The notes below the pieces were generated by a model. That model had not been told where the DNA came from. It was given only the letters and a program-made list of their open reading frames with translations, and did no database searches. 64,000 nt of DNA from Candidatus Heimdallarchaeota archaeon (lineage in GTDB: Archaea > Asgardarchaeota > Heimdallarchaeia > JABLTI01), in NCBI GenBank assembly GCA_019058275.1, contig JAHLVW010000108.1:20919-84918 (forward strand). Direction: 5' to 3'. This document shows, in pieces, positions 4,488 to 57,866 of the stretch. Numbering within the stretch: the stretch's first letter is position 1; each line of letters starts with the position of its first letter. The position numbers and the translations under genes are program-made.

Positions 4488-5398
4488 GCGTCTAAACTCT
4501 CCTGTAATTTATGGTTTTGATTCTCTGTTGTTTCTCTCTCAACAATTTCTATACTTCCATTATTTTCTTGTCCGAAGATTCTCTCAAAAGATACTTTTTC
4601 AAGTGTCATTTCTTTGACCTCGAGACGTCCATATCCACTATTACCTCCTCGCCCAAGTTGAGTTATTCCAAGAATACCTTCTATAAGTAATCCCAATAGC
4701 CATTGAGGAATCACTTTTGAGAATTCCACATAAAAACAAAATTCACCACTGAAATATTGCTCTGAGAAATCTTGCAGAGACTTTTTATCCCTTCGCGAAG
4801 CATGACGAAACTCATTGGAAACATAAACAAAGGAAAGTCCTTTTTGTTCTGTGATTTTGTCTAATGACTTATCAGATTGTATGATATTATCACTCCAAAC
4901 TCTAATTGAAGATTCTTCTCCAAGCATACCAAATAGTTGTCTGATAGCACAAGGATTATCACCACATTTCCCCATTAAGTGCTCACCTAAAAGTAAAGTA
5001 GATTCATTGTTTCCTTGAAATTTTTCTTTAATTGTAGGAGAACAATATTCAATTTCCTTACTGTAAAGAATATTCATAATACTATGTCTAATTGCACCTC
5101 TAATCCCTTTCACTACTCGAGAGATGCCTCGTTCTTCTTTTAGTATAGAAATTGAAATTTTAGCTTCAGGTTTCTTTTCTTTTGCTTTTATTCGAAGAGT
5201 ATTGAAATCATCAAGTATCAAATCTTTGTTCAACTGAAGAAACTCTTCTAATTCAGAAACAACAACATTTGTTTTTCCTTGATACTGATAAGGAATCTCC
5301 CCACCTCTCATTAGAAATGAACTTGAACCACTGCTGCTGTTAAGTGGTTTCGCCTACCAAGCATGAACTTTAACTGTTATACGATTGAATTTTTTCAT
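4469..5398 (-). pseudogene. Cas7-group RAMP protein (Csm3-like) with an in-frame TAG at codon 15
   Basis: GIRGAIRH, Zn-finger-like C..H..C...C-x-LFG, FSGEF, C-terminal G-rich loop LGRGGNSGYG; upstream ATG 5398 gives MKKFNRITVKVHAW*AKPL in frame with track ORF 4469..5311. Confidence 0.8.
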
Positions 5399-5515
5399 GG
5401 TTATTGACCTTATTGTTTTCATTATTATTTACATGGGGCTGATTATTTATAAACCTTATGGTTATCGGCAGATTAATATAATTATTTAACTATTGATTAC
5501 ACGGTGGATAAAAAA

Positions 5516-5680
5516 GTGTCCGAACTGTCAGTGAAAAAGAAACTTTCATACAACAGTGGAGTGTATAGAGTTCCAGTTCCTAAAATCTTCATAGATAATA
5601 TGGGACTAAAAAAAGGTGATGAGGTAATCGTCATCTATAAGGACGAAAACACTCTACTAATAACGAAAGTCAAGGAATGA
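5516..5680 (+). CDS. AbrB/MazE/SpoVT-type DNA-binding protein (54 aa)
   Basis: YRVPVPKIFIDNMGLKKGDEVIV pattern; below the ORF-track cutoff; divergent from the RAMP genes. Confidence 0.8.
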   Translation: MSELSVKKKLSYNSGVYRVPVPKIFIDNMGLKKGDEVIVIYKDENTLLITKVKE

Positions 5681-5739
5681 GACTGATTCATGGACACCTA
5701 TCCACCGCTATAACCGCTCCGTGAAGGAGGAAATAGAAA

Positions 5740-5895
5740 ATGAATAGATATCAGTCATTCAGTCTCTTGAGTAAAGAAAACTCTCGAGAGGATTATAAAA
5801 TTATTCCTCAGCTAAAAGAGGAAGTAGAATTTGCAGCCGACAGACCAGCTAAGAGGGTGGTCTGGTGGGCTTGTTTGAGGGAGGGATACGGTTGA
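5740..5895 (+). CDS. Small hypothetical protein (51 aa)
   Basis: Strong AAGGAGG RBS; coupled to the next ORF by a TTGA overlap. Confidence 0.5.
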   Translation: MNRYQSFSLLSKENSREDYKIIPQLKEEVEFAADRPAKRVVWWACLREGYG

Positions 5896-6113
5896 AGAAT
5901 TTTTTTAACCAAACGACCATCTACCTGCCTGAGCAAGACCTAACAATAACACTCAAGGTTCTGAAGAAAAGTAGGAAGCTTAGAGTGAGAATCAAGAACG
6001 GCGAAGCGACCAATCAATTCGTTTTAGATCATTGCTGAACTATGGAAGTCGCTGGGGCGTTTGTTACTAAAATCTCAGAACTTGACCTTTTGAATAGAGA
6101 GAGGGGGAATTGA
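5892..6113 (+). pseudogene. Small hypothetical gene with an internal TGA (6036-6038)
   Basis: TTG start after GAGGGA; frame continues past the stop to 6113, abutting the next start. Confidence 0.4.
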
Positions 6114-6114
6114 T

Positions 6115-6471
6115 GTGAGTCTACGATACAATGACCTAAATGAGCCTCATGATGAGGATATTGATTACAGAATGTGCATAGCCCCAGAGAACTTGTTCTA
6201 TACTGTTTGCTGGTTGGATACACCAAACTGGTCAATACATCCTTTTTTCAGTCAGCTCCAAAGACTGGCTGTCAGCGGGAGAAGTCAAGATGGTTACTAT
6301 CGCATAACTATTAATCGTGATGATTTTGATAGTGCAATCAGCAACTACTTTGCCAGAGAACTACGACGATTCGAACAGCAAATGGCAAAACAAGGGAAGA
6401 ACGCTCGAGAGGAATTAGTGGCAGAATTCGATAAGCTCTTCGATAAGGCAGTTAAGGAGGAAGAGGAGTGA
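6115..6471 (+). CDS. Hypothetical protein (mobile-element cargo)
   Basis: 118 aa ORF with an RBS, in a tightly coupled operon. Confidence 0.65.
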   Translation: MSLRYNDLNEPHDEDIDYRMCIAPENLFYTVCWLDTPNWSIHPFFSQLQRLAVSGRSQDGYYRITINRDDFDSAISNYFARELRRFEQQMAKQGKNAREELVAEFDKLFDKAVKEEEE

Positions 6472-6964
6472 AGTATGCAACAATAACTTACACCCAAGAA
6501 AAACAATAAGTAACAATTACCTTTGGTCAGAACCTTGAACCATTCCTTGTGCTATTCCTTGATAGTAAGTACCTGATTGATAATTGTAAGAGCCAGAAAG
6601 AAGAGACCATCATCGTTAGCGAAGAGGTGTTCGAGGACTACCTCTTCTTTCATCGGACAGTGCCACTACTACTAACACCAAAACTTGAAGAAATGCTTCC
6701 AAGAGTAGAGTTTGCCCTTCATCGAGCATTAGAAGTCTTGTCAACAGCATTAGCAGAGGAATGTGAACGAGTAGAGCAATTACCACCTGAAGAAGCAGAG
6801 AAAACTTACAATCAACTAACGGAGAAAGCTCAGCAACTACTTGCGAACCTCTCTACAGGAACGAGTTAGCAAAGTTGGCAGCACTTGATGCTTCAAAGTA
6901 TGAACGAGAGCAGGAAGAGGGAGGATTCTACCAAGAGGATTATCCAGAATTTGAGGGAGGATGA
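6468..6964 (+). pseudogene. Hypothetical acidic protein with an early TAA and a frameshift
   Basis: GTG 6468 MKYATITYTQEKQ*VTITFG runs into track ORF 6549..6869; apparent CT slip near 6850, the alternative frame gives NELAKLAALDASKYEREQEEGGFYQEDYPEFEGG*. Confidence 0.5.
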
Positions 6965-6970
6965 GCAAGC

Positions 6971-56338: not shown

Positions 56339-56380
56339 ATAATATCCCCAATTTGAAATATGAATTGGATGTGAGACTAA

Positions 56381-56725
56381 TTGGAAACAACATTAAACGA
56401 GCAAAAAAAGGAAGAAATTCCTCCAAAATCAAAAAAATTTCAAACAAGTTCAGTATTTGTACGAACCTCTTTTATTATAGGAATAATAACAGTAGCACTT
56501 TCAATAGCATATATGGGAACTTCTGGATTTTTACTACATTTTGGAGCTTTACCTTTAAACATAATTTGTAGCTTTACATTAGCTTTAGCACTTTCTGGTG
56601 TCATTTTAGGAAGTATATCATTACGTACAAATAGAAACATCTATGCCATCATAGGGATTGTAATAAATATAGTTATTATTGGTGTACAAATTCTATTTTT
56701 AGTTGTTGGAAACAATGTTGCTTAA
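56381..56725 (+). CDS. Small three-TM membrane protein
   Basis: GVILGSISL...AIIGIVIN, DUF4190-like. Confidence 0.7.
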   Translation: METTLNEQKKEEIPPKSKKFQTSSVFVRTSFIIGIITVALSIAYMGTSGFLLHFGALPLNIICSFTLALALSGVILGSISLRTNRNIYAIIGIVINIVIIGVQILFLVVGNNVA

Positions 56726-56811
56726 AACAAGTTAAATGCCAAAATTCTGTTCATCTTTTTTTAGCTCTTTTTAAACCAAATTCTCTTAGGTGTTAGCTGA
56801 GATGATAGCAG

Positions 56812-57213
56812 ATGCGAGGAAAAACACTCCTAATGATATTTATTGTGTCATTATCTTTATTAGTAAGATTTAGTAATCAACATTTAGCTGAGGTTAAAAG
56901 TCAAGCTATAGGTATTTCACTCGAATGGTCTTTTGAAACCGAATTAGGTGTATCAACTACTCCAAACATTATTGATATTGACAATGATGGTCAATTAGAA
57001 ATCATTTTTGGATCAGATGAGGGGATTTTGTACTGTCTTGACATTAACGGTAATAAATTATGGAATTTTACTACTGATAGATGCCTCTATTCTTCTCCAA
57101 CTATTGCTGACCTTGATAATAATGGGTTTTTTGAAATTGTTATAGGTTCTTATGATGAATATGTCTATTGTATAAATCATGATGCCTTTTCGATTCAAAA
57201 AAAGAGTATATAA
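56812..57213 (+). pseudogene. Truncated FG-GAP/PQQ-like beta-propeller secreted protein
   Basis: Signal peptide plus only two repeats (DIDNDGQLEIIFGS, DLDNNGFFEIVIGS), then an abrupt loss of the pattern. Confidence 0.7.
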
Positions 57214-57613
57214 AGATATAAGAGATGCTATCAAAACAGCAACAAAAGAAGAAGGATTTACAGCTTTTCTAAGTATAGATAAAGAAAGAAAAAGAATTAG
57301 ACCTACATTATGGGAAAATCTAGTAGTAAATATGTTGGCTTGTAGATTTGGCATAGCAGTATTACCACCTGAGAAAATTACTGTACCAGAAGAAGAGCAT
57401 AGATTGAAGATTTTTAATAATCCAAATGTAGCTTTAGAATATGGTTTTATGTATCTTAAGGGAGAGCACGATATACTTATTATTACTGAAAAATCCAAGG
57501 AGTTACCTGTTGATATTCAAGGAATGCTAGTAGAAAAAATTGACATGTATGACCCTTACAAAGATGTTTACAAAATTGTAAAAGAATGGTTACAAAGCAA
57601 AAAGCAAGTTTAA
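57179..57613 (+). CDS. TIR/nucleoside-deoxyribosyltransferase-like domain protein (possibly N-truncated)
   Basis: MMPF start, CRFGIAV, NPNVALEYG, LPVDIQG. Confidence 0.7.
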   Translation: MMPFRFKKRVYKDIRDAIKTATKEEGFTAFLSIDKERKRIRPTLWENLVVNMLACRFGIAVLPPEKITVPEEEHRLKIFNNPNVALEYGFMYLKGEHDILIITEKSKELPVDIQGMLVEKIDMYDPYKDVYKIVKEWLQSKKQV

Positions 57614-57615
57614 AC

Positions 57616-57768
57616 TTATATTTTTCTGCAGATAAATCTTTCATCATCTATTGAAATTGCTATTGTATCTCCCTTCTTTATTCCTAAATGTTCAGCAATT
57701 TCAACAGGAATGTTTACTTGTAAACTTCCATGATTATCAATGACTTTTCGTTTAAATTCTATTGGCAA
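57616..57768 (-). CDS. AbrB/MazE/SpoVT-type DNA-binding protein (50 aa)
   Basis: FKRKVIDNHGSLQVNIPVEIAEHLGIKKGDTIAI; below the ORF-track cutoff; divergent from tnpB. Confidence 0.85.
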   Translation of the reverse strand: MPIEFKRKVIDNHGSLQVNIPVEIAEHLGIKKGDTIAISIDDERFICRKI

Positions 57769-57785
57769 AGAATCCACCGTATAAT

Positions 57786-57866
57786 ACTATGGTTTCCATA
57801 ATATTTAAATATGATGTTTGCCATAGTATAACCATAGAAAAACCATAGTGTGAGATTGAAACCATG
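57786..57866. repeat. (AA)CCATAG repeat cluster, candidate operator sites
   Basis: Direct copies at 57821, 57830 and 57841, an inverted copy at 57786-57795, and AACCATG overlapping the tnpB start. Confidence 0.6.

Follow-up and report, generated by a model that had tools for sequence, protein, structure and literature searches.

A portable AbrB-promoter unit probably controls exchangeable nucleases on mobile DNA of a Heimdallarchaeia family

Here, we analysed a stretch of 64,000 nucleotides (the window; contig label C105) from the 4.1-Mb genome of a Candidatus Heimdallarchaeota archaeon (assembly GCA_019058275.1, contig JAHLVW010000108.1, positions 20,919 to 84,918). The window holds two cassettes in which a small AbrB gene lies head-to-head with an effector, i.e. 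a pair of RAMP genes in the left cassette and a TnpB gene in the right cassette. We suggest, with a probability of roughly two in three, that AbrB and the spacer in front of it constitute a portable control unit that represses exchangeable nucleases on mobile DNA of one Heimdallarchaeia family.

In this model, the unit consists of AbrB and a bidirectional TATA spacer of approximately 100 bp, with AbrB transcribed away from its partner. AbrB dimers would most likely bind short repeats on either side of the TATA element and over the payload start, and binding would repress both the AbrB gene itself and the potentially toxic nuclease. Upon entry of the element into a naive recipient cell, which lacks the repressor, a burst of nuclease would be expected. 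Recombination in or beside the spacer would swap the payload between TnpB (three types), an array-less Cas7 with Cas5-HD (ARAMP) and NERD/PD-(D/E)XK proteins, and would also swap regulators behind one payload. The gene layout, the decoupling of payload and regulator, the island status of the left copy, the operator-like repeats of the right copy and the strain-specific breaks are seen directly in the sequences; we infer operator binding, repression, induction on transfer and nuclease activity. The proposed repression of a divergent nuclease by AbrB may be likened to CvkR, for which repression of the divergent cas12k gene has been demonstrated and where MerR or ribbon-helix-helix (RHH) repressors lie head-to-head with cas12k (PMC9938897).

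The two small genes belong to the AbrB/MazE family of swapped-hairpin regulators (PF04014 at 30.8 and 27.6 bits; curated Pfam cut-off 24.7 bits), and the divergent AbrB opposite each effector, proposed in an earlier sequence-only reading of the window, is borne out, with spacers of about 100 bp. AbrB-1 (5501-5680, plus strand) is a family outlier with a YNSG-type hairpin that forms a long branch on the AbrB tree and has no relative more than 30% identical. It starts either at 5501, which is ATG in sister strains (59 amino acids) and ACG here, or at GTG 5516 (54 amino acids) with the Shine-Dalgarno (SD) sequence GGTGG at -13. AbrB-2 (57616-57768, minus strand) has a DNHGS-type hairpin and 50 amino acids counted from TTG 57768, which has the SD GGTGG at -10 and aligns with the ATG or GTG starts of AbrBs that are 85-90% identical. 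An imperfect short inverted repeat, possibly due to chance, surrounds AbrB-1 (5502-5521 and 5690-5708; CGGTGGATA...GTGTCC) and is extended by the strain-specific C5502.

The genus as a whole provides the evidence for the model. In a genus-wide census of 40 regions around AbrB matches, from which two tandem second copies and two rows of another genus were excluded, a nuclease lies opposite 41 of 47 AbrBs at a distance of about 50-260 bp. The payload is the RAMP pair in 21 cases, a NERD/PD-(D/E)XK protein in 12 and TnpB of one of three types in eight; in the host genome, five of the seven RAMP copies are head-to-head with AbrB. The mobile cassette family with exchangeable payloads that was originally proposed, including RAMP for TnpB, is therefore supported, from other genomes. 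The proposal that the payloads are specifically RNA-guided is not supported, because the 12 NERD/PD-(D/E)XK proteins lack a recognisable RNA-guide domain. These proteins form one family of 580-730 amino acids with two PD-(D/E)XK domains; a confident structural model (predicted local distance difference test score 87) matches restriction-type nuclease domains only in a fold search, and neither a methyltransferase partner nor a full-length structural match was found. They also have two N-terminal beta-rich repeats with a weak match to MraZ (L030:2888-5083, L103:6246-7976 and relatives). The slot thus appears to select for a nuclease, and the property common to its occupants would be "nuclease" rather than a demonstrated "RNA-guided".

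Payload exchange can be followed on both sides of the spacer. AbrB-2 is 85, 77 and 75% identical to AbrBs that face NERD-family genes across plainly homologous spacers, and its mate in a 90% identity cluster faces a 618-amino-acid NERD-family gene. Similarly, the spacer in front of AbrB-2 has 77% DNA identity with that of a NERD cassette on contig C84 and scores z 13-26 against NERD-type spacers (three at z 13-21); spacer z-scores based on 40 shuffles are noisy below about 8, and we rely on them only where a high z is paired with high AbrB identity. In a relative (G007), a TnpB of the window type lies opposite an AbrB that shares 56-59% identity with AbrBs facing RAMP genes, and the spacers can be aligned. 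Behind this AbrB are homologues of the cargo on the RAMP side of the window, i.e. six small open reading frames (5740-7410, plus strand; tblastx 1.6e-26; 31% identity over 155 amino acids, E 9e-26; also alignable as DNA). Hence, RAMP and TnpB have replaced one another on a common backbone. These swaps, the clearest ones, are evident independently of the AbrB tree. When mapped on that tree, the seven RAMPs nearest to that of the window need 7 changes, and the three window-type TnpBs need 3. On these comparisons, payload and regulator are decoupled.

Several observations weigh against this model. The AbrB set came from a profile seeded largely with payload-facing genes, the AbrB tree is based on 58 columns and does not resolve 27 of its 48 forks, no more than about nine of the 41 spacers show clear operator-like repeats, many others being just AT-rich, and most cassettes of the host genome with TnpB and LAGLIDADG lack AbrB.

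A gene for a LAGLIDADG-helix-turn-helix (HTH) protein, here referred to as the hub, directly follows AbrB in many cassettes, and AbrB might therefore chiefly govern the genes behind it (hub or cargo) with the nuclease as a passenger across the promoter. We consider this unlikely, because AbrB keeps its place opposite the nuclease in cassettes that have no hub or have it behind the nuclease, and because the repeats overlap the payload start. The hub lies behind AbrB, behind the payload or is absent, and the AbrB-spacer unit travels with or without it; conversely, only five of the 23 hub genes in the host genome have an AbrB. Hub and AbrB unit are thus separate modules, and the regulator is dispensable. 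A 540-amino-acid gene behind AbrB considered as Cas1 turned out to be LAGLIDADG-HTH. AbrBs of the same family also head another module with a 152-amino-acid gene and no nuclease opposite (C77:22350-22870 and C6:1162-1308 of genome G000). Beyond this family, the RAMP pair is opposite an RHH gene (Borrarchaeum) or, in most Hodarchaeota-labelled loci, next to co-directional genes without a regulator, and AbrB is found beside it in three loci from two other records. In Borrarchaeum weybense (L208), the gene opposite the RAMP pair is 49 amino acids long and RHH-like, not AbrB.

A stricter form of the idea was the starting point of this analysis, and we regard it as quite improbable: a single type of control cassette would be present at both window sites, with a common cis-element and AbrBs that recognise each other's sites. 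AbrB-1 and AbrB-2 are 25% identical, which is below the median of 29% among 51 family members, have different recognition hairpins and fall into different subgroups in the phylogeny; the claim of the same control cassette therefore fails for the AbrB part. The literal match of a 9-mer in front of both AbrB genes, ACGGTGGAT at 5501-5509 (plus strand) and 57772-57780 (minus strand), speaks for it. This 9-mer occurs nine times in the genome. However, base 5502 is T in two independent relatives (X5, about 99% identical, and X6, about 93%) and in assembly GCA_050009915.1, giving ATG-GTG-GAT, and two sister strains have ATGGTGGAT at 5501 instead. The left 9-mer therefore arose in this strain through a recent point change. 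In the relatives, ATG-GTG-GAT is likely the start of the 59-amino-acid AbrB or else the flank of the SD for GTG 5516. The remaining GGTGGAT has 423 genome copies; the 16S tail of the host ends in GGATCACCTCC, GGTG is present at -14 to -9 in 12% of 1766 gene starts, and the GGTG core is the SD of this genome. On the right side, the nearest relatives of AbrB-2 retain TACGGTGGA, and the final T is not conserved. Thus, the 9-mer is present at both positions as reported, but its identity is a coincidence of an SD-like core, chance flanks and one recent substitution, and the motif that started the inquiry is without evidential weight. Half of the outcome that the sequence-only reading named as refuting is thus observed: the motif is a common ribosome-binding context and the AbrBs are only distantly related, yet both belong to one broad cassette-associated family.

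The spacers give a more graded picture. Spacer 1 (5399-5500), which is identical in a sister strain, has a palindromic TATA element (TTTATAAA at 5446-5453) and just two copies of ATAACCAT, at 5397-5404 over the RAMP start and at 5458-5465. Spacer 2 (57769-57863), a candidate operator, has CCATAG repeats with an 11-bp period (57821, 57832 and 57843) around a palindromic TATA element (57801-57812), together with an inverted copy at 57786-57792 and a partial copy over the TnpB start. This CCATAG type recurs in the spacers of about nine of the genus's cassettes, compared with one of 278 ordinary oriented spacers. AACCATG covers the ATG of both effectors, and AACCAT recurs at 5458-5463 and at 57789, 57830 and 57841. 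AACC precedes ATG at background frequency, in six of 1766 genes (0.34%), and is therefore no generic start context. At least two copies of AACCAT are found in none of 139 ordinary divergent spacers, a comparison that favours the strict form but in which the motif was chosen after the fact and is strong in the right spacer only. The AACCAT copies noted at both sites are present, but they form a real operator-like array on the TnpB side only. A local alignment of the two spacers gives z = 1.6, equalled or bettered by 92 of 1000 shuffles (p about 0.09) and by 16 of 278 ordinary divergent spacers, and blastn detects no match between them. With the 9-mer broken in sister strains and reduced to an SD core, a shared cis-motif beyond the ribosome-binding site does not stand at the two window sites. 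There is a weak collinear likeness from the payload ATG to TATA and TTATGG, and the best matches of spacer 1 are right-type spacers (z 3.5-3.7); from these alignments, a remote common origin of the two spacers is possible. The two window copies are hub-less, transposase-less and decayed members of different AbrB subgroups and probably do not cross-regulate.

All three effector genes have in-frame stop codons that the sequence-only reading missed. The gene for the Cas7-like RAMP (4469-5398, minus strand; 309 amino acids, ATG 5398, PF03787) has TAG at codon 15 (5356-5354), and that for the Cas5-like RAMP-HD fusion (3504-4487, minus strand; 327 amino acids) has TGA at codon 15 (4445-4443) and an HD to HH change (4028). 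Both genes are open with the HD motif intact in sister strains (the locus in GCA_050009915.1 is naturally intact), which provide an intact 309-amino-acid Cas7 allele (P0017). In TnpB (57864-59582, plus strand; 572 codons, ATG 57864), TAA is at codon 438 (59175-59177) and the RuvC-III Asp is replaced by Tyr464 (59253-59255). Three TnpB relatives have an open frame, the RuvC-III Asp and Lys or Arg at the stop position; no close intact allele was found, and the best full-length relatives are 38-42% identical. Readthrough or recoding is ruled out, because all three stop codons (TAG, TGA and TAA) are represented and relatives have Trp, Arg and Lys/Arg at these positions. Assembly error is ruled out as well. 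For the left cassette, contigs with depths of 12 and 116, which may come from the source samples, carry identical alleles; the truncated TnpB of 437 amino acids is found unchanged in another assembly and in two Logan contigs. A dead TnpB of a TldR-like clade is ruled out, because the relatives retain the RuvC-III Asp. Thus, the window effectors are pseudogenes with strain-specific breaks. Neither cassette has a transposase, Cas1 or hub, and no hub remnants are present beside either AbrB. Stops are also present in many other RAMP and hub copies of the genome. In 3504-5502, six changes are derived in this strain (X5 and X6 share the other state): two create stop codons, a third eliminates the Asp of the HD motif and a fourth alters the AbrB ATG, so that disabling changes are unusually frequent among them.

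Decay by nonsense changes is what would be expected of toxic genes and fits a toxin-antitoxin system with AbrB as a protein antitoxin that binds and neutralises the nuclease itself, an arrangement proposed for archaeal RHH/MazE-TnpB pairs (PMC10691335); PF04014 is, moreover, the MazE antitoxin family. By contrast, the genes here are divergent and not in an operon, and the AbrBs are 50-60 amino acids long and consist of the DNA-binding domain alone without an antitoxin tail. Near-identical AbrBs serve unrelated folds, which is hard to achieve with one binding surface. A protein antitoxin therefore fits poorly, and we consider it very improbable.

The left cassette is an island of about 4.1 kb (3397-7495, ends approximate) that consists of the RAMP pair, AbrB and the cargo. 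The flanking genes (2197-3396 and 7615-8634) are adjacent in nine of ten relatives, and the island is absent from nine. Its insertion point in a conserved host gene is upstream of the start codon and downstream of the old SD, and it brings a new SD and GTG; the host gene is thereby cut off from its original SD and promoter (3396; 7490-7510), and its expression may now depend on the island. No terminal repeats, terminal inverted repeats or target-site duplications were found at the island. The cargo region (5681-7495) differs from that of the sister strain at 24.8 sites/kb, compared with 1.4-2.0 in the flanking genes and 0 in the spacer, reflecting recent recombination or cargo exchange; PHROGs named none of the cargo reading frames. 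The RAMP pair has the features of an ARAMP, i.e. an Asgard host, diverged RAMP homologues of Cas7 and Cas5, and a nuclease, on the basis of PF03787, G-rich loops and the HD motif. The label Cas5 is based on motifs and no profile matched; a RAMP paralogue gave a weak match to Csf2. There is no CRISPR repeat array in 3300-7700 and no Cas1-like or hub gene at the window RAMP copy.

The RAMP pair could be an OMEGA-like RNA-guided nuclease that does the job of TnpB (homing or element retention), with an RNA overlapping its 3' end and a guide from flanking DNA, in a slot for programmable nucleases. This is a tentative possibility. RAMP and TnpB occupy the same slot on the same cargo backbone, the HD motif is conserved in intact copies, and both have a conserved folded tract over the 3' end. 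The RAMP-side candidate (3424-3600, minus strand) overlaps the 3' end of the Cas5-HD gene, is conserved in most of 20 aligned RAMP 3' flanks and has a folding z of -2.9; nothing in Rfam comes near a gathering score. Its conservation ends about 28 nt short of the host start codon, at the island edge, which resembles the way in which IS605 omega-RNA ends at the element end. On the TnpB side, the omega-RNA scaffold candidate (59440-59590, plus strand) overlaps the TnpB 3' end and is conserved in three relatives to about 59590. Against this possibility, A-rich bases follow the RAMP scaffold in nearly all copies and would make a poor guide, neither window copy has a transposase, and position in the slot does not imply RNA guidance, because NERD/PD-(D/E)XK proteins with matches to restriction-type nuclease domains only fill it 12 times. 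The earlier suggestion of a TnpB-like role for the RAMP pair thus retains the shared slot in its favour, and this support is positional only.

The TnpB of the right cassette has the RuvC-I Asp, a RuvC-II Gly with an alternative Glu (RIIr-5-like by motif) and a zinc finger. No adjacent Y1 or serine transposase and no recognisable insertion sequence ends of IS200/IS605 or IS607 were found. Downstream of TnpB is a three-way hairpin of about 90 nt (59655-59746, plus strand) with a CAC-TGTAA-GTG apex, an invariant U-G pair, tandem GA mismatches and a GTA triloop. Compensatory changes are present in 12 of 26 pairs, and 85% of positions are paired compared with 28-48% when the structure is slid. It is ruled out as the omega-RNA of TnpB, because it is missing from three TnpB relatives and is found behind AbrB or the hub elsewhere. 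We identified 36 matches in 10 genomes of one family and none in 19 searched genomes of other families; no match came near an Rfam gathering score. Among 30 copies inspected, 11 begin at most about 25 nt from an AbrB stop codon, 12 are antisense about 125 nt past the hub, between the LAGLIDADG hub and a Cas1-like gene, and two follow TnpB. Genome G000 has copies on C73, C50, C33, C82, C30 and C27. The hairpin is common to NERD, RAMP and LAGLIDADG cassettes and marks them; it could be an RNA or a single-stranded DNA recombination hairpin. More speculatively, a class 1 RAMP effector made up of two proteins and equipped with an RNA might have become a drop-in substitute for TnpB ("class 1 OMEGA") in a modular Asgard element family with a portable AbrB switch, and the hairpin might be a recombination or control site for module shuffling; we consider this doubtful.

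The right cassette is part of a 14.4-kb island (49337-63907) with an imperfect duplication at its bounds (80% over 94 nt and 71% over 86 nt). This island lies in a ferredoxin-like gene and carries a DUF87/HerA-type ATPase, a TIR (CAP12-like) gene that converges on AbrB-2 and a gene for a secreted 532-amino-acid protein with a duplicate on C88. Short intergenic sequences at 56754-56828 and 54575-54610 are 92-97% identical at other loci in the host and related genomes. A third, decayed cassette (15790-19100) lacks AbrB; here, a TnpB in fragments is divergent from a LAGLIDADG-HTH hub gene that has three stops.

The AbrB-spacer unit has parallels in known systems. C proteins of type II restriction-modification systems are small DNA-binding proteins that time a toxic nuclease on mobile DNA via promoter operators; they are HTH proteins and co-transcribed with the endonuclease. 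The Asgard cassettes share with them the small DNA-binding protein, the nuclease on mobile DNA and the proposed operators, but lack a methyltransferase and have an AbrB-type, divergent regulator. In CvkR/Arc type V-K CRISPR-associated transposons (PMC9938897), a small repressor is likewise opposite an RNA-guided effector on a mobile element and the regulator type varies; however, each regulator type tracks one Cas12k clade, whereas the Asgard cassettes show regulators exchanged behind payloads as well as payloads behind regulators, and nucleases without homology to one another are among the payloads. The RHH/MazE-TnpB clade (PMC10691335) also combines a small AbrB/MazE or RHH gene with a neighbouring TnpB whose active site is rearranged, and it lacks a transposase. 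In that clade, TnpB is downstream in the same direction, the RuvC-III Asp is changed to His and a toxin-antitoxin complex has been proposed, whereas the window genes are divergent with a RuvC-II Gly (RIIr-5-like), their relatives keep the RuvC-III Asp and the AbrB-type regulator serves unrelated payloads. The aCas1-TnpB loci Cas1H-Asgard-1 and -2 (PMC10691335) are Asgard mobile loci with TnpB, and related cassettes of the host genome carry a Cas1-like module; the window TnpB is of another type, lacks Cas1 and flanking repeats, faces AbrB and has no blastp match to the aCas1-linked reference TnpBs. Finally, published summaries describe ARAMP and HRAMP as array-less type III derivatives, with a distinct Cas1 linked to most but not all ARAMPs and thus not obligatory (PMC8730458, PMC12669027). 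The window pair resembles ARAMPs in its Asgard host, diverged Cas7 and Cas5 homologues, nuclease and lack of a CRISPR array at the locus. It differs in that it is broken and has no Cas1 nearby; moreover, the nucleases named in these summaries are HNH and PD-(D/E)xK, and they make no mention of a divergent AbrB or of an exchange with TnpB. Thus, as far as these summaries go, the components are known, with ARAMP and aCas1-TnpB already catalogued, while the AbrB-promoter unit, an intact testable allele and the family-restricted, covarying 90-nt hairpin are new; a literature search combining Asgard, RAMP and AbrB found no paper in the library covered.

Since 2020, ARAMP has been listed in catalogues with no function assigned to it. 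The regulated slot that it shares with TnpB and restriction-like nucleases places it as the nuclease of a mobile element, selfish or defensive, and not as an immune system. Because a 99%-identical strain holds an intact four-part copy, i.e. AbrB, spacer, Cas7 and Cas5-HD with its 3' RNA, this role is testable. Should the RAMP pair prove to be programmed by RNA, OMEGA systems would have a minimal counterpart in class 1.

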